A stretch of DNA of 39,903 bases from the IMG/VR virus record IMGVR_UViG_2654587728_000015. One strand, written 5' to 3'. Shown piece after piece: positions 541 to 35,071 of this stretch. This stretch comes from a virus. Taxonomy: Duplodnaviria; Heunggongvirae; Uroviricota; Caudoviricetes. The position numbers were made by a program, and so were the translations under genes. How positions within the stretch are numbered: position 1 is the stretch's first letter; every line of letters begins with the position of its first letter. Below the pieces are notes generated by a model that did no database searches, was not told the origin of the DNA, and saw only the letters and a program-made list of their open reading frames with translations.

Positions 541-1578
541 TTAACGCTTATCCGCCACCAGTTTGAGCGCGTGTTCCAGCACATTAATGTCTGCACCCGC
601 TTTATGGGCATTTTCACTTAAATAACGCCGCCACTGCCGCGCGCCAGGAATACCCTGGAACAAGCCCAGCATATGCCGGGTAATATGGCCGAGATACGTA
701 CCCTGGCTGAGTTCACGCTCAATGTACGGATACATGGCGCGCACTACCGCCACCGGATCAGCATCAGTATCCGAGGAACCAAAAATCTCTCGGTCTACCG
801 CCGCCAGAATACCCGGATTCTGATACGCCTCGCGCCCGACCATCACGCCATCCATATGTTGCAAATGCGCTTTAGCTTCTTCCAGCGACTTGATACCACC
901 GTTAATCGACATCGTCAGATGCGGAAAGTCACGCTTCAGTTGATACACACGCGGATAATCGAGCGGCGGGATCTCACGGTTTTCTTTCGGACTTAACCCA
1001 GAAAGCCAGGCTTTACGTGCGTGGATGATGAACATCTCACACTCACCTTTGCCGGAAACGGTGTTGATGAAATCGCAGAGAAATTCATAGCTGTCCTGAT
1101 CATCGATGCCAATACGCGTTTTCACCGTCACCGGAATCGACACCACATCGCGCATCGCTTTCACGCAGTCGGCAACCAGCTGCGCATTACCCATCAGACA
1201 CGCACCAAACATGCCGTTCTGCACCCGGTCAGACGGGCAGCCGACATTCAGGTTGATCTCATCGTATCCACGCGCTTCTGCCAGCTTCGCACACTGTGCC
1301 AGCGCCGCCGGATCGCTACCCCCGAGTTGCAACGCTACCGGATGTTCTTCTTCACTGTACGCCAGGTAATCACCTTTACCGTGAATAATCGCCCCTGTGG
1401 TCACCATTTCGGTATACAGCAACGTATTGCGGGAAAGCAGACGCAAGAAATAACGGCAATGTCTGTCCGTCCAGTCGAGCATAGGAGCAATGCTAAACCG
1501 AGAATTCCAGTAAACACCAGTTTTTTCAGGCATCACGCTGGTTTGATTAATTTTTTGTGTTTCATGATTATCGTGCAT
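541..1578 (-). CDS. dusA: tRNA-dihydrouridine synthase A (host gene; 5' end is the known target of DusA-associated integrases)
   Basis: 345-aa ORF with Dus family motifs ([31 protein letters not shown]); divergent integrase immediately upstream. Confidence 0.9.
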
Positions 1579-1666: not shown

Positions 1667-2764
1667 ATGGCGTACTATAACATAGAGAAACGACTAAAAT
1701 CCGATGGCACACCACGCTATCGCTGTAATGTGATTATCAAAGAAAAAGGTGTTATCACTTACAGGGAAAGCAAAACATTCCCTAAACATGCTCATGCCAA
1801 AACATGGGGCACACAGAAAGTGATGGAATTAGATCTATATGGCATTCCATCATCAAATGCAGTTGACGGACTTACAGTCCGTGACTTACTACACAAATAT
1901 TTAAATGACCCAAATGCCGGAGGTAAAGCAGGCCGTACTAAAAGATATGTGCTGGAACTGCTTATGGATAGTGACATCTCCGCGATCAAACTATCTGAAC
2001 TGACAGAAAATGACGTAATTGAACATTGCAGGCTAAGAAACAACGCTGGCGCAGGTCCAGCAACAGTCAGCCACGATGTTAGTTATCTTGGCAGTGTTCT
2101 GGATGCGGCCAAACCTGTATACGGAATTAATTACACATCAAACCCGGCGAAAAGTGCTCGTCCATATCTACTTAAACTTGGTTTGATTGGTAAATCAAAC
2201 CGTCGTAATCGTAGACCAGCATCTGATGAACTGGACATGCTCATTGAAGGCCTTCAACAACGATCTACTCATAAATGCTCAAAAATTCCGTTCGTTGATA
2301 TCCTCAAATTTTCTGTGTGGTCCTGTATGCGAATCGGAGAAGTATGCCGGTTACGATGGGAAGATCTCGACCAGGAACAAAAATCTATACTCGTAAGAGA
2401 CAGGAAAGATCCACGCAAAAAGGAAGGCAACCACATGAAAGTAGCCTTGCTTGGGGAAGCCTGGGATATCGTCCAACGACAGCCCAAAAAATCGGAATTC
2501 ATTTTTCCATATAACAGCACTTCTGTTACTGCGGGATTTCAGAGGGTAAGAAGCAAATTAGGTATTAAGGATCTGCGATACCATGATTTGCGTAGAGAAG
2601 GGGCAAGTCGCTTATTTGAGGCTGGTTTTAGTATTGAGGAAGTAGCCCAGGTTACAGGGCATCGTTCATTAAACGTGCTATGGCAGGTATATACCGAACT
2701 GTATCCGAAATCTTTACATAATCGTTTTGAAGAGCTCCAAAGGAGCAGAAATAAGACCCCTTGA
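1667..2764 (+). CDS. int: Tyrosine-type site-specific integrase (DusA-associated integrase family likely)
   Basis: 365-aa ORF; C-terminal catalytic region with R...HDLRR...GHRS...Y pattern; located at prophage end divergent from dusA; SD ACGAGG 7 nt upstream of ATG. Confidence 0.85.
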   Translation: MAYYNIEKRLKSDGTPRYRCNVIIKEKGVITYRESKTFPKHAHAKTWGTQKVMELDLYGIPSSNAVDGLTVRDLLHKYLNDPNAGGKAGRTKRYVLELLMDSDISAIKLSELTENDVIEHCRLRNNAGAGPATVSHDVSYLGSVLDAAKPVYGINYTSNPAKSARPYLLKLGLIGKSNRRNRRPASDELDMLIEGLQQRSTHKCSKIPFVDILKFSVWSCMRIGEVCRLRWEDLDQEQKSILVRDRKDPRKKEGNHMKVALLGEAWDIVQRQPKKSEFIFPYNSTSVTAGFQRVRSKLGIKDLRYHDLRREGASRLFEAGFSIEEVAQVTGHRSLNVLWQVYTELYPKSLHNRFEELQRSRNKTP

Positions 2765-2812
2765 CACTGTTTATCCATACAGTTAAAAATAATACTGTAT
2801 ACAAACACAGTA
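2761..2812 (+). promoter_or_regulatory. SOS-regulated promoter: -35 TTGACA followed by two tandem LexA boxes (CTGT-N8-ACAG) upstream of dinI-like gene
   Basis: CACTGTTTATCCATACAGTT (~2765..2784) and TACTGTATACAAACACAGTA (~2793..2812) both fit LexA box consensus TACTGT(AT)4ACAGTA. Confidence 0.7.
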
Positions 2813-2825
2813 TAGAGGGACTTTT

Positions 2826-3074
2826 ATGCGTATTGAAATCTGCATAGCCAAAGAAAAAATGACTAAAATGCCAACCGGTGCTGTGGATGCGTTAAAGGAA
2901 GAATTAACCCGACGCATCAGTAAACGTTATGACGATGTAGAGGTGATCGTAAAAGCCACCAGCAACGATGGCCTTTCTGTTACACGCACCGCAGATAAGG
3001 ATTCTGCAAAAACTTTTGTTCAGGAGACTCTGAAAGATACCTGGGAATCTGCTGACGAGTGGTTTGTTCACTAA
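2826..3074 (+). CDS. dinI: DinI-like DNA-damage-inducible protein
   Basis: 82-aa protein with conserved DinI C-terminal motif ([15 protein letters not shown]); LexA boxes upstream; SD AGAGGGA. Confidence 0.8.
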
Positions 3075-3217
3075 TTAACACGTAAAATCGGTAACGGCTG
3101 GAAATCATTCAATAATCGCACTATCGAAAGTTCGCCAGCCAGCCGCAGCACGTTCTTGCATACGACGTGGCTGCGGCTTCCAACATTAGACAAATAACTC
3201 TTTAAATTGCTTTTAAA

Positions 3218-3781
3218 TTATTTCGTTTGAATGCCAGTAACAGGAAATCGTTTATATAGGGTTGATAGCCCAACGTTATAGATACGTGCAACATAACGCC
3301 GTGATTTCCCTGCCGCTATGAGCGCTCCCATCTGTTGCCACTGCTCGTCGCTAAACTTCGGTCTACGCCCACCAATCCGGCCTTTGGATCTGGCAATAGC
3401 CAAACCAGCTAAAGTTCGCTCGCTATTCAAATCAGATTCATACTGCGCAGCAGAAAGAATATTACGGAAATTATAGCGACCACTTGCTGTTTTCAGGTCT
3501 ACGCCATCTGTAATACTCCGAAAATTAACACCTTTTTCGTGCAGATTTTGAAACATCAATAGCGCATGCAGCACATTTCTCCCTATCCGATCTAACTTCC
3601 AGACAATCAACTCATCTCCACTTTTCATCACCGTAATTAATTCCTTTAACACAGGGCGATTAGCTGTTCTGCCACTGGCATATTCTTCATAAATTCGCTC
3701 ACAGCCAGCTGACTCAAGTGCAAGACGTTGCAACTCTGTATCCTGATGATTTGTTGATACACGAACATACCCGTAAATCAT
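3218..3781 (-). CDS. Serine recombinase, DNA invertase of the Gin/Pin/Hin family
   Basis: 187-aa ORF starting YGYVRVSTNHQDTELQ with catalytic serine, resolvase core and C-terminal HTH (VGLSTLYKRF); position after tail fibre and tfa as in Mu gin / e14 pinE. Confidence 0.9.
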   Translation of the reverse strand: MIYGYVRVSTNHQDTELQRLALESAGCERIYEEYASGRTANRPVLKELITVMKSGDELIVWKLDRIGRNVLHALLMFQNLHEKGVNFRSITDGVDLKTASGRYNFRNILSAAQYESDLNSERTLAGLAIARSKGRIGGRRPKFSDEQWQQMGALIAAGKSRRYVARIYNVGLSTLYKRFPVTGIQTK

Positions 3782-3786
3782 GAGTG

Positions 3787-3813
3787 CTTCTCCTGTTGTA
3801 AAAACAGGAGAAG
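3787..3813 (-). promoter_or_regulatory. Perfect 10-bp hairpin (CTTCTCCTGT/ACAGGAGAAG) whose 3' arm contains the invertase Shine-Dalgarno; candidate translational sequestration element
   Basis: Inverted repeat read directly; AGGAG lies inside the stem, ~8 nt upstream of invertase ATG; no U-tract after the stem. Confidence 0.35.
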
Positions 3814-3949
3814 AGGCGAAATATCACCTGATTCAGAAAAATATTTCAAAGGTTCGTTTCGAACAGGAGGAGTAGCGGAGGGCTATGTTGCTTAGTTTGA
3901 AAATAGCTGGTCTTGCTGATGCGCATTGATGTAGCAAGACCAGTATGGT

Positions 3950-4318
3950 TTAAAGTTCCGGGATGACAGGCCAGTTAACATGCTCAGGGTCGGTTGTTAC
4001 ATCAACAGCCTTAACCTGATTCTTATATAAAAGCCACGCCGAAAGTTTAGCTCTGTTGGCATCGCTGATTTCACCCAGCATCAGCTCTGTGCGCCAGTCG
4101 AGCATAATTGCATCAGCGGCGGACAGTAATCGCTGTCGCTCATTTTCAGCAGCCTGGATGAGTTGTTCATGAGTCGGTGGGGGATTAATAATTGCCATAG
4201 CCTCACTTCTGGTGATTGGCACAAGCCCTTCTTTGATAAAAGCATCCTGTGTGCCATACGCATCGTAGGCATATACGACGTTATTTTCATCTTTGTAATG
4301 CTTCATCATTGTTATCAT
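3950..4318 (-). CDS. Tail fibre assembly protein (Tfa/U-like chaperone)
   Basis: 122-aa ORF with Tfa motifs ([11 protein letters not shown]...PTHEQL...[16 protein letters not shown]); ATGA start/stop overlap with tail-fibre gene. Confidence 0.85.
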
Positions 4319-5295
4319 TTTTTATCCACCTCTACCCAGGTAACATCTGACACTGTTCCTGAAAACTGCTGCACAATATAGGTCGCACCGGCAGGAACCA
4401 TGAATGCGATAGTTGCTCTTTGCCCTGCAAGATTTGTTGTCTGAGAGCCGCGAAAATTAGCCGAATTACCATCCACATTAACGTTGGCGCTCAGAAATGA
4501 ACTACCGTCAGACAGCACCGCATTGACGCTTACAAATATGGCGAAAGACTGGCTGTTGGTGTATACGACACCGAGATTTCTAGATTTCATTCCGCATTGA
4601 CCAAACAACCCTTTCATATCTGAATAGTTTTGTGATGCAGCAAGTGATGATGCAGCAACACCAGATTCCGTCGATGTTCTGGAATCAGATACGCGGATAA
4701 TTCCCTTGTTTGTTGGGGTCGCATCATTGGTCTTGCCTTGCAACGCCTGTATATCCGCATAATTCATCGCTGCCGCTTTTGCTGTTGCAGCAAGCGTTTC
4801 AGATTCGGATACCCTTGATGATGTAAGTTGAACAATTCCTTTCTGTGTCGTAGTTGAATCCTGAGTTTTGTTTTGCAAAGATTTTATGTCCGTATAGTTT
4901 TGCGCGACAGCATTAGCTGTGGCTGCAATATCCTCTGCACCCGATACCCGCGATGACGTTAACCGGACTAAACCCACCTGTGTTGTTGATGCGTTTTTAA
5001 TACCAAGGTTTTCGAGAGCCGTTTTCACCGTGCCATCCGATTTGATATCACCAAACGGATTCTTGCGGCTTAACAGCAGCGCACGAAGCGCGGTAAGCAG
5101 CTGATCGTGCCGCGCCTTCTCCAGACTGGCACCGGATGCCTCCACCACGCTGCAAAGCTCCTCCTGCAACATGTCAAAGTAGTCATCATCCAGATCGGTG
5201 GCAGGCGTGCCGGTCTGGGGGTTACCACGGGTAAAACCGTTCTTACCCGCGCCGAACTTATCCTTCTGCGCGGTTTTCGTGTCTATACGATGCAT
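4315..5295 (-). CDS. Tail fibre protein (Mu S / e14 Stf-like)
   Basis: 326-aa ORF between gp48-like gene and tfa; internal tandem repeats; C-terminus typical of side tail fibres. Confidence 0.8.
4606..4989 (-). repeat. Three diverged tandem ~40-aa coding repeats inside the tail-fibre gene
   Basis: Repeated units [38 protein letters not shown] / [38 protein letters not shown] / [34 protein letters not shown]. Confidence 0.7.
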
Positions 5296-5298
5296 GGA

Positions 5299-5886
5299 TT
5301 ACTCCGGATATTTAAAAATTACGTAGGTATGCGACGGGCAGAGTTTGTTAAGCACACACTCGACAACGGTGTCGCCCCAGATACGCAGTGCGGAATCACA
5401 GGGATCGCCACATGTCATCCAGGTGGTGTTGGTGGTGGTGGTTGGCATGTTGACCTGCCAGTAATACCGCCATTCCGGCGCATTCACCGCGTCAGTACAG
5501 GCCGATGAGCAGGTGAACGTGCTTTTGTCGTATCGCGTGATGGTGGCATCTGGTCTGCCCAGGGCAGCAAGCTGTGCAAGATAAAAATCCTCGTTGATGC
5601 CGCCCGCCAGGTTAACCTTCGCATCCAGCCGTTGCTGACGCTGGCGAAGGGTCTGCGTTCCCGCCGGAATACATTCATCCGGCAGACCGCACAGACGCTC
5701 CCAGCGGTTTATCAGTTCAGTGGTGGTGCGCGGATCCAGCTCCCGCATCAGGGCATCCGCACGCTGATGAGCGCGGGTTAATGACGGTGCCGCACCGGCA
5801 ATCGCCGGATCGCTGGCTGACCACGCCGGACCGGGGGGCAACAGTGCCGACAACAGACGGATGTAATCATCGTTTGTCACGTCCAT
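5299..5886 (-). CDS. Tail protein, Mu gp48 / e14 YmfQ-like (DUF2313)
   Basis: 195-aa ORF; position between baseplate J and tail fibre exactly as in Mu/e14. Confidence 0.7.
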
Positions 5887-6935
5887 GAAATCGTCCCCAG
5901 TACCGCCAGTTCATTTTTTGCAATGGAGATATTGTCTGCCGGTGCAAGCAACTGATGGCTGTATTCCCCGTTCGCACCGGAAATCGCTTCACTGATACGT
6001 GACACCTTCAGTTCTCCCTGCGGATAACCATCACGCAGCAGGAACGAACGCAACTCCGCGGTAATGGCAGCCCGTATTTCCGGTGTGTCCGGCGTCACGC
6101 GGATATGAAAATCCACCGTATGTGCCACCGGCCTGAATACATACAAATCAGAGCCTGCCACCGGGGCCAGTGGCCCGATATGTTGTCTTGCTGCCGTTTC
6201 CGTTGATTCTTCCGGAATGGGATTAATCAGGTCACTGCTGGCAATCATCACACCGACAGTTCCCGTTCCCATCCAGTGACGGTATGTCCATGCGCGGGTA
6301 ATGCCGGGCACTTCTTTAGCCCAGACGACATAGTCCCCGTCAGCCCCGCCCTGCGGCGTCCAGTAATACCGCTCAATGACGCGGGCGCGCCACGTTTCCA
6401 GCTCTTCAGTATCAAATCCGCCTGTCAGGGTGTCAGCCACACCGGAAGACGGCAGACCATTCACCGGCGTGACCAGGATTAATGCCGTACCGTCGTCAGC
6501 GTTACCGACCGCGCCTGTAGTTGAGCAAGTGATCGGCACACGCAGGACACCACCAGTGCTGGTTGCATCGGCAGTTGCCGTGTACTGAACCAGGTCATCG
6601 CGCTGAATAACACTCCCGGCGGTCACCTTCAGGCCATCGCTGACACCTTCCCAGCGCATATACCCGCTGGCAGCCGTGGCCCCCTTGCGCGGACACCGTT
6701 TCATCGCAGCATGTCGCGCCAGCCAGGACTCATCGCACAGGTCAGGCAGCATATTCATTGCCAGATAATCGATGTACCCGTAAACCGTATGCAGCGCCGC
6801 CGCATACACCTTTGCCCGCACGTCTTCATCCATGCGCCGGAGCGTGTCGCTGACGTCCAGCCTGGCGAATAAATCGTTACGGAGCATACTGATATTTTCT
6901 GCCAGCGTCGGGCGCTGAAATTCACTGTCCGCCAT
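5877..6935 (-). CDS. Baseplate J-like protein (Mu gp47-like)
   Basis: 352-aa ORF; gene order and size match baseplate wedge J family. Confidence 0.75.
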
Positions 6936-24705: not shown

Positions 24706-25758
24706 TTATTTCCCCACCAGTTCACTTACCTCTTTCACCGTCTGATTAAACCGCTCTGACTCAAGTTCAACACCTAACGCCCGACGCCCCAGCGCCATTG
24801 CTGCTTTTATTGTGGAACCGGATCCCATAAAGAAATCAGCAACCAGATCGCCTGGTCGACTACTGGCATTGATTATTTGCCGGAGCATATCCGCCGGTTT
24901 CTCGCACGGATGTTTACCCGGATAGAACTGAACGGGCTTATGCGTCCAGACATCGGTATAAGGCACGGAGACTGATACGGAGAAATAGCGCCGGAGTGAT
25001 TTAAACTCATCCAGCAATTCAGAATATTTGCGATTCAGTGAATCATAAGATGCCACCAGCTGGTGGTGTGGTTGTTCCAATTGCTGTTCCTGAAACTTCT
25101 CTGCCGCTATACGGGAAAACAGTGCCTGTAACTTCCGGTAGTCAGCCTCATTCGGCAACTGCCACTGACTGGCACCAAACCAGTGGGAAACCATATTTTT
25201 CTTACCTGTGGCTTCGGCAATTTGTTTTGCCGTTATACCCAGTTCGGCACGAGCATCCCTGAAATACGATATCAGCGGTGCCATTATGTGCTGTTTGAGT
25301 TCCCTTTCTTTTGCCGCATAGCCGTCACTTTTGCCACGATATGGCCCATGGTAATGTTCAGCAAACAGAACGCGCTCTGTGGCAGGAAAATATGCACGCA
25401 GACTTTCTTTATTACACCCATTCCAACGTCCGGACGGCTTCGCCCAGATGATATGGTTAAGCACGTTGAAACGTTCACGCATCATGATCTCAATATCAGA
25501 TGCCAGGCGATGTCCACAGAACAGGTAAAGGCTTCCGGCAGGTTTCAACACCCGCCAGAACTGGGCCAGACAGTGATCCAGCCACTTAAGGTAATCTTCG
25601 TCCCCTTTCCACTGATTGTCCCAACCGTTGGGTTTCACCTTGAAGTAAGGCGGATCGGTAACAATCAGGTCAATGGAATCATCAGGCAGGGACTGAATAA
25701 AATGCAGGCAATCAGCGTTGATTAAATCAACACTGTTTATTTTTACAGTATTTTTCAT
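24706..25758 (-). CDS. DNA methyltransferase (N6-adenine or N4-cytosine, DPPY motif, beta-class order)
   Basis: 350-aa ORF with motif IV DPPY near N-terminus and AdoMet-binding FxGxG (FFMGSGST) near C-terminus; no adjacent restriction endonuclease. Confidence 0.8.
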   Translation of the reverse strand: MKNTVKINSVDLINADCLHFIQSLPDDSIDLIVTDPPYFKVKPNGWDNQWKGDEDYLKWLDHCLAQFWRVLKPAGSLYLFCGHRLASDIEIMMRERFNVLNHIIWAKPSGRWNGCNKESLRAYFPATERVLFAEHYHGPYRGKSDGYAAKERELKQHIMAPLISYFRDARAELGITAKQIAEATGKKNMVSHWFGASQWQLPNEADYRKLQALFSRIAAEKFQEQQLEQPHHQLVASYDSLNRKYSELLDEFKSLRRYFSVSVSVPYTDVWTHKPVQFYPGKHPCEKPADMLRQIINASSRPGDLVADFFMGSGSTIKAAMALGRRALGVELESERFNQTVKEVSELVGK

Positions 25759-28932: not shown

Positions 28933-29322
28933 TCAGGCGGCTGCACCCGCCGTTTTCTCGTACTTACTGATGGTGATCTCGACCTTCCCTTTCGGGATAA
29001 CCGGTCCCCACTCCACCAGCATTCTTTTCACCTGTCTGTCGTCTTCCCACACACCCGCGTGGGTCAACGCGTCAAACAGCGCCTTGTTATAGTTGTCCAG
29101 ATCGCGGATCCGGTTATCCGGAGGAAACAACACGATCTCCACTGAAGCAGGTGCCGACGTTGGTTTTGGCAGACGACGTAACTGCTCAACTATTGCTGCG
29201 CACGCCGCGCTCTGAAATTTTCGCCCCGCCGCGCTTATCAGGCTCTTACCAGCAAATTCCCCCTTGTTGGGGTGTCGCCAGTACGAGTTCACGCTGGGCG
29301 GGAAAGGCAGGATCAGCTTCAT
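28933..29322 (-). CDS. rusA: Holliday junction resolvase RusA
   Basis: 129-aa ORF with RusA motifs (PPSVNSYW...DLDNYNKALFDALTHAGVWEDD). Confidence 0.85.
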   Translation of the reverse strand: MKLILPFPPSVNSYWRHPNKGEFAGKSLISAAGRKFQSAACAAIVEQLRRLPKPTSAPASVEIVLFPPDNRIRDLDNYNKALFDALTHAGVWEDDRQVKRMLVEWGPVIPKGKVEITISKYEKTAGAAA

Positions 29323-29645
29323 ACTTTCAGGCCTCTCTCATGTAACCAGTGGGCTGCACGCAGCCTGGCGTTTTCCTCACCGGCAAGCAGTGAGCGGATA
29401 ATCCCGACCGCCTCGCTGTCGTCGTCCTTCACCGCGGTATGAAGAGTGATACCCCGGGCCACGCCACGCTTTATCGTGATGACTCCTTTTTTCTCCAGTG
29501 CGCGAAGATGTTCCACCGCTGCATTCACTGAACGGTATCCCAGCATGGTTGCCACCTCCTGATTGGTTGGCGGGAAGCCACGTTCTTTCTGGTAAGAAAT
29601 CAGCATATCCAGCACCTGCTGCTGGCATTGAGTTAACGTCGTCAT
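29319..29645 (-). CDS. LexA N-terminal DNA-binding-domain-like protein lacking the S24 peptidase domain
   Basis: 108-aa ORF; pattern LT..QQ.V.D.I...GFPPT..E.A..LGYRS.NAA.EHL.AL.KKGVI.I..G.ARGI.L parallels the LexA winged-helix domain including the recognition helix. Confidence 0.7.
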   Translation of the reverse strand: MTTLTQCQQQVLDMLISYQKERGFPPTNQEVATMLGYRSVNAAVEHLRALEKKGVITIKRGVARGITLHTAVKDDDSEAVGIIRSLLAGEENARLRAAHWLHERGLKV

Positions 29646-32046: not shown

Positions 32047-32961
32047 CTAGTTAAAGGCATTGATGTATGCCTCTTTGAACTGGGCAGCACGTTTACCCGT
32101 GAAACCCATAGCAAGAAACGCAAAGCCGTCGCGGGTTATTTGGTAGCAAGGAAGTTTGCGACCTGTGCAATCAGTGTAATCACTCACCGAAAAATTGCGG
32201 GCAGTGAATGATGCTGAGCATTCAAGCGTGCGGATCTTTTTCAGTACATCGTCATGACGTTTGGAGAAGAAGTTGGCAACAGCCAGGGATGAAGTAACAG
32301 CCTGACCATCAACGATGGCAATTTCAGGTTGAGTGAGGGTTGGGATCGTAGCCATGATGGCAGCCTCTTTGGTGATTTTTAATAACTCACCACCAAGGCT
32401 TTCCACGACCTTATTGGTGGTGAGACGTACAGGGGTGGAAATACCGGTCACCAAAGAACCCGGCCCAACCGAAGTTGGCCCTGTACGCCCCACCATAATT
32501 TGGGCGTAATGCTGCTCATGACACAAAAAAACCGCAAGAGCGCGGTTGTGCGCTTTGGTGAATTCCGGGTTTCCACGCCCGGCACCCGTTTTATAAGGTG
32601 CCTGAACAGTGTAACGTCCCGGAATGGCAGAATCAATGTGCTGGTGGTCCTTCACACTCAACAAAATCACGCCTGAATTTCCACAAAGGACTAAAGCACT
32701 CATGCGGGTAGTCTTTGCGAAGATAGATAACGCGCTGTGTTTCTGGTTCCCAACGAATAACATGGACATAAAGCCCTCTTCCGTCACGAAACCAGCGGTT
32801 AAGTTCCTGCACAACTCGCCCCCCACAGTCAGGTAAAGTTCTCTGTGGTTACTTACAGCCAGGTGATTTGGTAATCTGCATTCATGCCGTAACAACAAGT
32901 GTTCAGCGACACTGACCACCAGCTGTTGCGACAAACGGTTATTTGCCGTTAAACTGTTCAT
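32047..32961 (-). CDS. Rha/AntA-family phage regulatory domain protein (domain in C-terminal ~100 aa; N-terminal 200 aa unknown; possible internal start at 32355)
   Basis: C-terminal segment ...SSLAVANFFSKRHDDVLKKIRTL...YQITRDGFAFLAMGFTGKRAAQFKEAYINAFN matches Rha-type domain; internal SD AAGAGG plus ATG at ~32355. Confidence 0.55.
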   Translation of the reverse strand: MNSLTANNRLSQQLVVSVAEHLLLRHECRLPNHLAVSNHRELYLTVGGELCRNLTAGFVTEEGFMSMLFVGNQKHSALSIFAKTTRMSALVLCGNSGVILLSVKDHQHIDSAIPGRYTVQAPYKTGAGRGNPEFTKAHNRALAVFLCHEQHYAQIMVGRTGPTSVGPGSLVTGISTPVRLTTNKVVESLGGELLKITKEAAIMATIPTLTQPEIAIVDGQAVTSSLAVANFFSKRHDDVLKKIRTLECSASFTARNFSVSDYTDCTGRKLPCYQITRDGFAFLAMGFTGKRAAQFKEAYINAFN

Positions 32962-33762: not shown

Positions 33763-33859
33763 ATAACCTCCACATATTGCGTGATGAGCATATTATTTCA
33801 CGCAAATATTTTGCGCAAGTTGATTTGCTTAACGCGCAATAAAGAAATGTAATAAACGC
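33763..33859. promoter_or_regulatory. OR-like operator/promoter region between cro and cI with TTGC-N7-GCAA sites (perfect at ~33825..33839, one-mismatch at ~33777..33791) plus additional TTGCGCAA palindrome
   Basis: Inverted-repeat half-sites read directly; divergent genes on both sides. Confidence 0.6.
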
Positions 33860-34552
33860 ATGAACATAGGAAATCGAGTCAGACAACTTCGCCAGGCGAA
33901 GAACATGAAAATCGCCGATCTCGCTGAAGCAATAGGAGTGGATGCGGCGAATATCTCGCGCCTCGAAACAGGTAAGCAGAAACAATTCACTGAACAAGCC
34001 CTGAGTAATATTGCCAGGAGCTTAGGTGTTGATATTGCTGATCTCTTTACCTCAGACCTCAAAAGTAATACTGTATGTAAAAACAGTATTAGTGAGGATG
34101 TTGCGCAGGTGAAGGATGTATTCCGTATTGAAATGCTGGATGTCAGTGCCAGTGCGGGAAATGGCCTTATCCAGGGCGGTGATGTCATTGATGTGATTCA
34201 TGCCATTGAATACAGAACTGATAATGCTGTATCGATGTTTGGTGGACGACCAGCAAATCACATTAAAGTTATCAACGTTCGTGGGGACAGTATGTGTCCA
34301 ACCATTGAGCCAGGAGATCTCATCTTCGTTGATATCAGTATCAATCAGTTTGATGGGGATGGTATATATGTATTTGGTTTTGATGATAAAATTTACGTCA
34401 AACGACTGCAAATGATACCTGATAAACTGCTGGTAATTTCTGATAATCAGATTTACCGCGAATGGGGAATTACCAGCGAAAACGAACACAGGTTTATGGT
34501 CTTTGGAAAGGTCTTAATCAGTCAGTCACAAACCCTTAAGCGACACAATTAA
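33860..34552 (+). CDS. cI: CI-like prophage repressor (HTH plus LexA-like S24 autopeptidase domain)
   Basis: 230-aa ORF; N-terminal HTH (IADLAEAIGVDAANISRLE), C-terminal GDSM serine and KRL lysine of S24 fold; no obvious SD, consistent with leaderless PRM-type transcript. Confidence 0.85.
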   Translation: MNIGNRVRQLRQAKNMKIADLAEAIGVDAANISRLETGKQKQFTEQALSNIARSLGVDIADLFTSDLKSNTVCKNSISEDVAQVKDVFRIEMLDVSASAGNGLIQGGDVIDVIHAIEYRTDNAVSMFGGRPANHIKVINVRGDSMCPTIEPGDLIFVDISINQFDGDGIYVFGFDDKIYVKRLQMIPDKLLVISDNQIYREWGITSENEHRFMVFGKVLISQSQTLKRHN

Positions 34553-34574: not shown

Positions 34575-34598
34575 GCCACCAGAAGGTGGCTTTTCATT
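34575..34598 (+). terminator. Rho-independent terminator after cI (GCCACC-AGAA-GGTGGC then TTTTCATT)
   Basis: Perfect 6-bp GC stem and T-run immediately 3' of cI stop. Confidence 0.6.
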
Positions 34599-34608
34599 AC
34601 TCACGCTA

Positions 34609-34646
34609 TTGCATATCTCGCAATAAAATACTTGCACGTTACGCAA
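34609..34646. promoter_or_regulatory. OL-like operator pair: two perfect TTGC-N7-GCAA sites (~34609..34623 and ~34632..34646), likely overlapping a rightward PL-type promoter
   Basis: Same half-site architecture as OR sites; located upstream of the rightward early operon. Confidence 0.55.
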
Positions 34647-35071
34647 TTTCATTTTATCTTTCTTTCCAGACCAACAAACAAGGTCCTGACAAAATTTGGT
34701 TGTAACACGGCGTATGGCACATGCGTCGTTAGCGGTCTGGGGACGTTAAAGGGGACAATCCACTCCTTGCTCGGGCAAACAAACCAGGTAGCCGGAATGT
34801 GCAAGTCAATGAGGATGCTGATAAGACGCCTAACCAGCGTGGCGATTCGGTTTGACGCCTGGGAAGAGACCAGGGTGCAACGATGAGGGCATTTATGGAA
34901 CCTCGACAAAGTGTGGTGCCGTAACTGGCTAAGTGCTCTCAGCGTTGTGGTAATCCGCGAAATGGCGCGGCGGTAAGTATGGCGGGGTTACTCTTTCCCC
35001 GTTGAGGACACCGGATTGTCAGGTTGACCATACGCCTGAGTGACAACCACACCACAACAGCCACTGCTTTG

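Follow-up and report, generated by a model that had tools for sequence, protein, structure and literature searches.

Based on our analysis of a 39,903-nucleotide stretch of viral DNA (the window), we propose that the promoter immediately downstream of the integrase gene drives a LexA-repressed moron, which encodes a paralogue of DinI and is expressed in response to SOS. We consider this explanation probable as a whole, and very probable for its operator and DinI-paralogue parts taken jointly. The prophage is of the SfV/SKA5-like type and is integrated in dusA of E. coli. The cassette, at about 2761-3180, is, on sequence comparison, a self-contained and horizontally mobile moron that lies near att in many enterobacterial prophages. 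Its predicted parts are a sigma-70 promoter with a 17-18 bp spacer, two LexA operators and a monocistronic gene for the DinI paralogue (Table 1). LexA control of prophage dinI homologues has already been established experimentally in the Gifsy phages of Salmonella, and this cassette is another instance of it.

Table 1. Features of the prophage discussed in the text (positions in the window; HI, heterology index)
Feature	Position	Strand	Basis or detail
dusA	541-1578	-	adjoins int
dusA-associated tyrosine integrase (int)	1667..2764	+	ORF list; Pfam Phage_integrase, E = 1e-20
-35 hexamer TTGACA of the dinI-like promoter	2761-2766	+	promoter scan; TTGA invariant in 13-sequence alignment
LexA box 1, CACTGTTTATCCATACAGTT	2765-2784	.	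HI 7.20; CTGT-N8-ACAG core 2767-2782
-10 region, between the boxes, A/T-rich	2784..2790	+	TAAAAA (17-bp spacer) or AAAAAT (18-bp spacer)
LexA box 2, TACTGTATACAAACACAGTA	2793-2812	.	HI 5.22; CTGT-N8-ACAG core 2795-2810
Shine-Dalgarno GAGGGA	2815-2820	+	direct reading; 5 nt upstream of ATG (2826)
DinI-like protein, 82 aa, putative RecA-filament groove binder	2826..3074	+	Pfam DinI; PHROG 189; PDB 1GHH/7YWA
Strong stem-loop in the gap between the convergent dinI-like and invertase genes	3141-3178	.	RNA fold
LexA box at the 5' end of a late-region DNA methyltransferase gene, codons 3-9	25731-25750		HI scoring
LexA-DNA-binding-domain paralogue, 108 aa, without cleavage domain	29319-29645	-	LexA model, PHROG 362
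LexA box inside the cI ORF, linker-coding part	34069-34088		HI scoring

The TTGACA hexamer and the two tandem palindromes can be read directly from the DNA where the preliminary description had placed them, and the GAGGGA and the ATG follow. Both boxes are exact CTGT-N8-ACAG palindromes of 20 bp with CTG-N10-CAG arms. They had been called near-consensus, a term that is fair for box 2, which matches TACTGTATATATATACAGTA at 17 of 20 positions, and somewhat generous for box 1 (15 of 20). Five CTGT-N8-ACAG motifs are found in the whole window against 0.46 expected from shuffles, and none of 100 shuffles reached five; the fifth match, at 32843, has an HI of 16.6 and is probably a chance occurrence. 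The HI matrix was recovered by regression on the 20-mers of PSOSP Table S1 and their HI values (largest residual 5e-5), a table in which 20-mers with HI up to 13.6 are all in the authors' LexA-binding class. In the LexA-box matrix scoring proposed for them earlier, their HI values (7.20 and 5.22) fall within that LexA-binding class, lie in the range given for the strong SOS boxes of E. coli K-12 and are typical of medium-to-tight SOS operators. The same matrix assigns an HI of 6.24 to the chromosomal dinI box of K-12, and the next unrelated site in the window has an HI of 16. In a simulation of 1000 first-order Markov windows, sites with HI <=9.6 occurred at a mean of 0.006 per 40 kb, and none had an HI <=6.5.

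The position of the boxes is that of operators. A promoter scan returned TTGACA-18-AAAAAT with 10 of 12 matches, the predicted -10 element being weak (4 of 6), and the record of phage mEp460 marks the same promoter. Box 1 fills the -35/-10 spacer of this predicted promoter, and box 2 lies over the predicted transcription start, which falls inside it at about 2797. The earlier statement that the boxes sit between TTGACA and the ribosome-binding site is right overall, save that the final two bases of the -35 hexamer also belong to box 1. From box 2 to the start codon there are 15 nt; the single box of K-12 dinI, also directly upstream of its ribosome-binding site, is 21 nt away. Because of the HI values, the promoter overlap, the conservation of the arms and the precedent of the Gifsy dinI genes (PMC3121763, PMC8072944), we interpret both palindromes as bona fide LexA-type operators positioned to shut the sigma-70 promoter of a DinI-family gene, and the preliminary description of them as LexA operators on the dinI-like promoter has good support in silico.

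How well is the two-box layout conserved? It persists in diverged versions from E. coli, Salmonella and Enterobacter. Thirteen diverged cassettes from E. coli, Salmonella, Enterobacter and Citrobacter were aligned. The TTGA of the -35 hexamer, the -10 positions A2786, A2787 and T2790, the CTG arm of box 1 and the TGTA and CAG columns of box 2 are invariant, and the CAG arm of box 1 is kept in 12 of the 13; to the left of the -35 hexamer these cassettes have unrelated sequences. A scan of viral contigs with the alignment returned mostly relatives of at least 93% identity and served for counting box retention: two boxes are present in all 51 further loci, which are close relatives representing 14 sequence variants. 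A scan of genome contigs with the single DinI-like protein yielded just four near-identical loci. Box 1 is lost in BP-4795 and box 2 in Citrobacter, and the boxes of a Stx2_EH2201-type variant stand at HI 11.4 and 8.9; given such weak or broken boxes in natural variants, two operators are therefore not strictly required. Stx2_499 carries a truncated dinI remnant without boxes. The centre-to-centre spacing of the boxes is 28 bp here and varies between 26 and 29 bp in homologues, which counts against phase-locked cooperative binding.

The earlier assignment of the downstream gene as a DinI homologue is borne out by concordant Pfam, PHROG and PDB matches. The protein covers Pfam DinI (PF06183) over profile positions 1-63 of 63 with E = 1.1e-19 (70.9 bits against a 24.2-bit cut-off), and matches PHROG 189 'RecA filament binding protein DinI' (E = 6e-31) and the DinI structures 1GHH/7YWA (E = 4e-13). 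It is 47% identical to K-12 DinI and scores 73 bits against the NCBIfam DinI equivalog NF007893, under the 111-bit cut-off, and is therefore a paralogue of chromosomal DinI rather than its orthologue. In E. coli DinI the residues that contact RecA form a hydrophobic pocket (L13, L21, W71, W77 and F78) and an acidic patch (E24, E69 and D76) (PMC9926225). On alignment to K-12 DinI, their equivalents in the 82-aa protein are M15, L23, W73, W79 and F80 for the pocket and E26, D71 and E78 for the patch, so that all eight are identical or conservatively replaced.

Similarity to other phages and genomes sets in at 2758-2761, which makes the -35 hexamer the left boundary of the cassette. Of 5,426 complete E. 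coli genomes, 1,831 (34%) carry it, at up to seven places per genome. Its neighbours include ssrA, yehU, prfC, aspS/yecD and dusA-int, it is convergent with tail-fibre genes, and its backbones comprise siphovirus-type lambdoid phages (mEp460 and Stx phages) as well as SfV/SKA5-like myovirus-tailed phages. A promoter of its own (predicted), a sharp homology boundary and unrelated backbones together mark it as a moron. The preliminary description had stressed its location next to int, whose counterpart is labelled integrase in the records of phages SKA5 and mEp460. This adjacency has no special meaning for an att-proximal moron with homology starting at the -35 hexamer; in most phages the neighbours of the cassette are the att site and tail-fibre genes, and no integrase adjoins it. 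By direct reading, the int stop codon TGA (2762-2764) falls within the -35 hexamer. No convincing inverted repeats that could be invertase crossover sites near the cassette were found in 3000-6200. At the other end of the cassette, the RNA fold of 3060-3225 has a free energy of -40.7 kcal/mol (z = -2.8). Its stem-loop lacks a U-tract and a terminator scan made no call; the structure may nevertheless act as a terminator.

We envisage the following mechanism. In an undamaged lysogen, host LexA dimers would occupy box 1 in the spacer and box 2 at the start and keep the gene off, a step that we infer from sequence, position and conservation. Upon DNA damage RecA filaments would form and LexA would cleave itself, and the promoter would fire only once both operators are free. 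The product would be an extra dosage of DinI, proportional to damage, by which RecA filaments would be stabilised. As it builds up, DinI would compete with slowly cleaved substrates, namely UmuD and the prophage's own cI, a repressor of the self-cleaving type (S24 domain, E = 6e-19, with the Ala-Gly site, the GDSM serine and the VKRL lysine). Mutagenesis and prophage induction might then be damped or delayed during transient SOS, a consequence that we put forward tentatively. DinI stabilises RecA filaments at stoichiometric levels and inhibits only in excess, when it reduces UmuD cleavage (PMC6590174); with such dose-dependent behaviour, it is uncertain whether cI cleavage would be raised or lowered. 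A role of the DinI-like gene in tuning induction is plausible. This copy may add little, given that the host chromosome encodes a dinI and that several prophage copies are often present as well. The preliminary description went further and saw in the cassette, the cleavable cI and the LexA-domain protein a multi-layered control of induction, which is unsupported as stated: non-polar dinI deletions in Gifsy-1 and Gifsy-3 left induction levels and rates unchanged (PMC3121763).

By HI scoring the prophage contains four strong LexA-type boxes, the dinI pair and those in the cI and methyltransferase genes (Table 1). The latter two are absent from the preliminary description and bear more directly on the idea of multi-layered control than dinI does. 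The cI-internal box occupies the same codon position in phage repressors of E. coli, Salmonella and Klebsiella, despite changes in the peptide that it encodes, and the methyltransferase box is also conserved in phiP27, a Morganella phage and phiKO2. These boxes are more unusual than the dinI pair, and the one inside cI is the more promising lead. A literature search, with many subscription journals outside its coverage, returned no account of the tandem boxes of the E. coli prophage cassette or of a LexA box lying inside a cI gene. The dinI boxes were also considered as operators of the phage cI and rejected, since the cI/cro intergenic region (33763-33859) has unrelated palindromes of the TTGCG...CGCAA type.

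Other explanations of the cassette deserve consideration. That the palindromes arose by chance or have decayed and play no regulatory role, next to a gene that is constitutive or silent, might be argued from the degraded boxes of BP-4795 and Citrobacter and from the boxless remnant of Stx2_499, but the rarity of such sites in simulated windows, the arms conserved across genera amid diverged flanks and the retention of both boxes in every further locus make this a negligible prospect. It is also very improbable that the gene belongs to a LexA-controlled antirepressor module of the Gifsy (gfoA/gftA) or 186-Tum type, in which a repressor is inactivated by binding. The Tum antirepressor of phage 186 does include a DinI-like half (PMC3121763), and the PHROG 189 profile has 151 positions of which the match covers only 71-149. 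However, the protein is DinI-only with its 82 aa, the prophage repressor is of the S24 self-cleaving type, and between the dinI-like stop and the convergent invertase there is no plus-strand ORF of at least 20 aa; this anatomy effectively refutes the module. A reading that is compatible with our preferred explanation, and that we find quite conceivable though somewhat short of probable, retains the same regulation and regards the cassette as lysogenic-conversion cargo of benefit to the host, and not as a control of the phage's own induction. By modulating RecA filaments, an added supply of DinI would keep UmuD cleavage and SOS toxicity in check and so aid survival of the lysogen under damage, for example by quinolones. 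The inhibition of UmuD cleavage by surplus DinI (PMC6590174), the moron-like, att-proximal spread irrespective of backbone through a third of complete E. coli genomes, the lack of an induction phenotype in the Gifsy deletions, and the presence of a prophage DinI-like gene among accessory genes linked to emerging quinolone-resistance mutations in E. coli (PMC10575684) are in keeping with this idea. The last association is correlative, though, the chromosome already has a LexA-controlled dinI, and DinI and lambda-type cI engage shared elements of the RecA groove (PMC9926225), so that an effect on induction would be hard to avoid if DinI accumulates.

The remaining alternatives involve the LexA-domain paralogue of the phage. 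This protein gives a match to the LexA model at positions 3-91 (E = 5e-19) and falls in PHROG 362 'transcriptional repressor'; it shares 44% identity with LexA residues 4-86, the recognition-helix segment SxNAAxEHL among them. With four strong boxes available in the prophage, the paralogue might also, or mainly, bind the dinI operators, re-occupying them after loss of host LexA and placing the cassette under an uncleavable phage-encoded repressor during lytic growth. We regard this as doubtful: the boxes suit host LexA perfectly well, the same boxed cassette is present in many phages and isolated remnants, and the paralogue has no LexA dimerisation domain, which makes high-affinity binding to palindromes questionable. 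Broader still, and unlikely though a shade less so, is the notion that the dinI double operator is one arm of a 'mini SOS regulon' run by the phage, in which the DinI-like moron, cI and the methyltransferase, together with the LexA-domain paralogue, would time and buffer the decision to induce. With LexA lost, cI would be expressed differently and would face competition from the DinI paralogue in the RecA groove; by re-occupying the boxes once host LexA is gone, the LexA-domain protein would close the window of induction.

What are the implications of a LexA-repressed DinI moron? Taken alone the dinI finding is ordinary and its importance modest. Enterobacterial prophages, many Shiga-toxin phages included, carry SOS-repressed DinI paralogues as standard cargo, and a genome often has several copies. 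Through their summed dosage, these LexA-controlled modulators of RecA could alter SOS dynamics and mutagenesis and move the induction thresholds of other prophages in the cell, Stx prophages among them, and such dosage effects are invisible to K-12 studies. A promoter with tandem operators is a clean, testable system for graded versus switch-like SOS control. Moreover, HI-based classifiers of 'SOS-dependent' prophages will count morons of this kind as LexA control of induction, and may mislead.

The closest parallel is found in the Gifsy prophages, where a DinI paralogue likewise lies directly 3' of a promoter-overlapping LexA box and is damage-induced. The Gifsy homologues accumulate after mitomycin C, SOS control of the dinI operon is gone once the LexA-box region is replaced (PMC3121763), and nalidixic acid induces them 4.6- to 23-fold (Merida-Floriano et al. 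2021, PMC8072944). Gifsy dinI genes have one box, whereas this cassette has two; they follow the replication genes in the early region and are the first genes of an operon that also contains an antirepressor gene and irsA, whereas the gene described here is monocistronic and att-proximal; and the Gifsy repressors are uncleaved, in contrast to the self-cleaving repressor of this prophage. Tum of phage 186 and the split tum/dinI of PSP3 and Fels-2 are also LexA-repressed phage genes with a DinI-like domain, but the antirepressor half is missing from our protein and the induction logic here is cI cleavage, not antirepression. In K. pneumoniae a ChIP-confirmed LexA box covers the dinI start site, as box 2 covers the predicted start here, and the sRNA DinR depends on a Klebsiella-specific 3' segment (PMC10907235). 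A DinR-like 3'-UTR sRNA is unsupported in the phage cassette, where the 3' hairpin has no U-tract and Rfam gives no match above threshold, only a CssrB match on the opposite strand at 22 bits against a 76-bit gathering score. Chromosomal dinI of K-12 belongs to the same fold family (1GHH, 7YWA) and has its box just upstream of the ribosome-binding site, like box 2; it has a single operator, and the phage promoter adds a second one in the spacer. More than one LexA dimer per promoter, as at lexA, recN and the colicin genes (box counts in PMC8072944), generally goes with tighter repression and later or more switch-like induction; the lexA boxes are about 21 bp apart and those of colicin genes overlap. 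With a centre spacing of 28 bp, the boxes of the phage promoter are neither that close nor overlapping.

Based on the sequence, the promoter of the DinI-like gene carries two strong, conserved LexA-type operators, placed where bound repressor would exclude RNA polymerase. Reading of 2700-2830 recovered every element listed in the preliminary description: the TTGACA hexamer, both boxes, GAGGGA and the ATG. The last two bases of the hexamer are shared with box 1, and the TGA that ends the integrase gene (2762-2764) also falls within the hexamer. A simple promoter scan returned TTGACA-18-AAAAAT (10/12 matches), and TTGACA-17-TAAAAA is an equally good reading; under either -10 choice the whole spacer is taken up by box 1, and the predicted start site at ~2797 falls within box 2. 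The GenBank record of mEp460 already carries an annotation of this promoter.

Features of the dinI-like locus, its neighbours and the other LexA-related elements of the window
Feature	Position	Strand	Detail	Source
dusA	541-1578	-		
Tyrosine integrase	1667-2764			
-35 hexamer TTGACA	2761-2766	+		sequence reading
LexA box 1	2765-2784		CACTGTTTATCCATACAGTT	sequence reading
A/T-rich gap			8 nt, between box 1 and box 2	sequence reading
LexA box 2	2793-2812		TACTGTATACAAACACAGTA	sequence reading
GAGGGA	2815-2820			sequence reading
DinI-like ORF	ATG 2826, end 3074		82 codons	ORF list
Serine invertase, Pin/Gin-type	3218-3781	-	convergent with dinI-like gene; adjoins tail-fibre genes	
LexA-type box in methyltransferase gene	25731-25750		CACTGTTTATTTTTACAGTA, HI 6.84; codons 3-9 of minus-strand ORF 24706-25758	HI scan
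LexA DNA-binding-domain paralogue	29319-29645	-	108 aa	
LexA-type box in cI	34069-34088		TACTGTATGTAAAAACAGTA, HI 3.31; inside plus-strand ORF 33860-34552	HI scan

Box strength was expressed as the heterology index (HI), the score used in the SOS field, on which stronger boxes have lower values. An additive matrix was recovered by linear regression on 106 E. coli K-12 20-mers with HI values (supplementary table, PMC12527982), with a maximum residual of 5e-5 and reproduction of 34 held-out rows. On this matrix box 1 scores 7.20 and box 2 5.22, compared with 6.24 for the single box of chromosomal K-12 dinI. The 20-mers with HI 4.31, 4.65, 6.98 and 8.80 in the table are those that we take to be the recA, sulA, uvrA and uvrD boxes. 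The low-HI class of the table, treated as LexA-binding by its authors, reaches HI 13.6 (PMC12527982). Only four sites in the whole window fall below HI 16, two of them the dinI boxes, and 1000 simulated first-order Markov windows contained a mean of 0.006 sites with HI <=9.6. The core CTGT-N8-ACAG occurs five times against 0.46 expected, a number reached in 0/100 shuffles. Matrix scoring and chance tests thus confirm the LexA-type boxes of the preliminary description.

Conservation follows the operators. When the 110 nt 5' of the start codon were taken from diverged cassettes (the self-contained segment of promoter, two boxes and DinI-like gene) and 13 distinct versions were aligned, there was no conservation 5' of the -35 hexamer. 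From there on the invariant columns are TTGA, CTG of box 1, CA of its right arm, two A's and a T in the -10 region, TGTA and CAG of box 2, and the ATG, while the versions differ at the eight central positions of each box (ATACAAAC, ATATAACC, ACATAACT, ATATCCAA). Both boxes are retained, at HI 6.3-9.7, in Salmonella and Enterobacter cassettes, whose proteins are 73-76% identical; in BP-4795 the G of box 1 has been lost, and one Citrobacter version no longer has box 2. Among close relatives with enough upstream DNA in IMG/VR and genomes, two boxes are present in 51/51 loci (14 sequence variants). The centre-to-centre spacing is 28 bp in the window and 26-29 bp elsewhere, a variation that makes independent LexA occupancy of the two boxes more likely than phase-locked cooperativity.

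The ORF encodes a full-length DinI-family protein (Pfam E = 1.1e-19; PHROG 189, 'RecA filament binding protein DinI'; PDB 1GHH/7YWA, E = 4e-13), as had been proposed. It scores 73 bits against the NCBIfam chromosomal-DinI equivalog model, under the 111-bit cut-off, and is 47% identical to K-12 DinI; it is therefore a paralogue of the chromosomal protein. Cryo-EM of RecA-DinI places contacts in a hydrophobic pocket (L13, L21, W71, W77, F78) and an acidic patch (E24, E69, D76) (PMC9926225). The aligned residues are M15, L23, W73, W79 and F80, and E26, D71 and E78, respectively, so that all eight positions are identical or conservative relative to E. coli DinI. Binding of RecA filaments by the paralogue is thus a well-founded inference.

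Sequence matches identify the window as an E. coli prophage. Over segment 1600-3220 it shares 99.8-99.9% identity with many E. coli chromosomes and with phage SKA5; the corresponding figure is 98.7% for the int-dinI pair against phage mEp460 and 99.5% for the late region against Shigella phage SfV. The gene order is dusA, tyrosine integrase, DinI-like gene, serine invertase and then Mu/SfV-type tail genes. Phages lacking this integrase match 2700-3120 from query position 60-62 (window 2759-2761), and matches in complete E. coli genomes without an adjacent integrase begin at 2758-2761. These boundaries mark the cassette as mobile, with the -35 hexamer as its left edge. The junction of the int module with this moron is only a few bases wide, the homology boundary falling at 2758-2766 and the int stop inside TTGACA. 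The cassette was found in 1,831/5,426 complete E. coli genomes, in up to seven places per genome. Its neighbours in other elements include ssrA (CP-1639), yehU, prfC, aspS/yecD or the att duplication of Stx phages, and in every one inspected it faces, in convergent orientation, genes for tail fibres, tail-fibre assembly or effectors. The adjacency to int emphasized in the preliminary description is present, but is a by-product: the cassette adjoins att, and this integrase chances to lie on that side too.

Some features of the surroundings are recorded here. Just past the dinI stop, 39 bp (3082-3120) are 95-97% identical to non-coding DNA near attP in HK97, phi80, HK106, mEpX2 and several Stx2 phages, all without dinI, and a strong stem-loop lacking a U-tract (3141-3178) lies between the convergent dinI and invertase genes; together they may mark a conserved junction between modules or form a terminator of atypical type. 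Some Stx2a phages (L005, that is Stx2_499, at 1477-1719, and L006) have a dinI-like gene whose 5' end has been replaced (MPHRYPAAKINKMPKG...), which has no LexA boxes upstream and adjoins IS629; these look like rearranged cassette remnants. At the invertase and the adjoining tail-fibre genes (3218-3781 and 3950-5295) the window, unlike SKA5, lacks alternative fibre genes on the other strand, and no convincing inverted crossover repeats were found in 3000-6200; this prophage may have a reduced or fixed invertible segment.

What are the implications for the lysogen? Host LexA would repress the dinI-like gene and DNA damage would derepress it, as sequence and precedent suggest. In the Gifsy prophages of Salmonella a LexA box lies between promoter and start codon of the dinI homologues, the protein accumulates after mitomycin C, and with the LexA-box region replaced the operon was no longer under SOS control (PMC3121763); nalidixic acid induces these homologues 4.6- to 23-fold (PMC8072944), and the K. 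pneumoniae dinI promoter is a LexA target by ChIP (PMC10907235). As no plus-strand ORF of at least 20 aa precedes the convergent invertase, the gene is monocistronic on sequence grounds. We suggest, tentatively, that added DinI dosage might damp or delay cleavage of slow substrates, including the phage's own cI, which is S24-type with Ala-Gly, GDSM and VKRL motifs. Authors of work on Stx phages have speculated that the DinI-like gene would limit induction (PMC8456039). DinI stabilizes filaments at stoichiometric levels and inhibits the coprotease only in excess (PMC6590174), and Gifsy dinI deletions have no induction phenotype (PMC3121763). About equally likely, the cassette is conversion cargo benefiting the host (PMC10575684), a role compatible with damping of induction.

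The other two LexA-type boxes may be of more interest than the dinI operators. The box in cI, the strongest in the window and better than both dinI boxes, lies in the stretch encoding the HTH-S24 interdomain linker. A box also occurs at this position of the gene in Salmonella phage F1055 (76% DNA identity, HI 5.80) and Klebsiella phage 1 LV-2017 (69%, HI 5.89). The encoded peptides differ (TVCKNS, TVCKHS, TVHINS), and the linker around the box aligns only with gaps and frequent mismatches, the flanking DNA having diverged. Retention of the box while peptide and flanks change points to selection on the DNA motif. No convincing promoter was found around it, and no description of an intragenic cI LexA box was found in the literature searched; it could act as a roadblock, an internal promoter or an antisense promoter. 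Separately, the cI/cro intergenic region (33763-33859) carries TTGCG...CGCAA-type palindromes, presumed cI operators unrelated to the LexA boxes; motifs of this kind appear again just 3' of cI (~34595-34650), possibly an OL-like or distal operator set. The other box lies in a gene for a 350-aa DNA adenine methyltransferase, situated downstream of Q and ahead of the lysis genes. This box starts 8 nt past the ATG and recurs at the same offset in phiP27 (HI 7.8), Morganella phage IME1369_02 (HI 8.3) and phiKO2 (HI 9.2). Here the peptide NTVKINS is conserved too, so selection on DNA is inseparable from selection on protein and the case is weaker than that of cI. The LexA paralogue is 44% identical to LexA residues 4-86, including the recognition-helix motif, and has no S24 domain for cleavage and dimerisation; the prophage's four LexA boxes, or host SOS boxes, are sites for which it could compete. 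Taken together, both boxes and this paralogue make the earlier idea of 'multi-layered' control of induction one that merits a test, although the dinI cassette is probably the least distinctive part of such a scheme.

The locus does qualify as a prophage moron with a putatively LexA-repressed DinI paralogue as its cargo. The gene is annotated as DinI-like in many records, and the increment over what is known is small: the tandem operators of the E. coli cassette, of which no description was found in the literature searched. The closest system is the Gifsy dinI locus, which has one operator where the window cassette has two. Unlike Gifsy, the window has no antirepressor downstream of its dinI-like gene, and its prophage repressor is cleavable. 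With two operators, no antirepressor and a cleavable repressor, the locus therefore falls outside the antirepressor class of Gifsy and of 186 Tum, an antirepressor with a DinI-like half.
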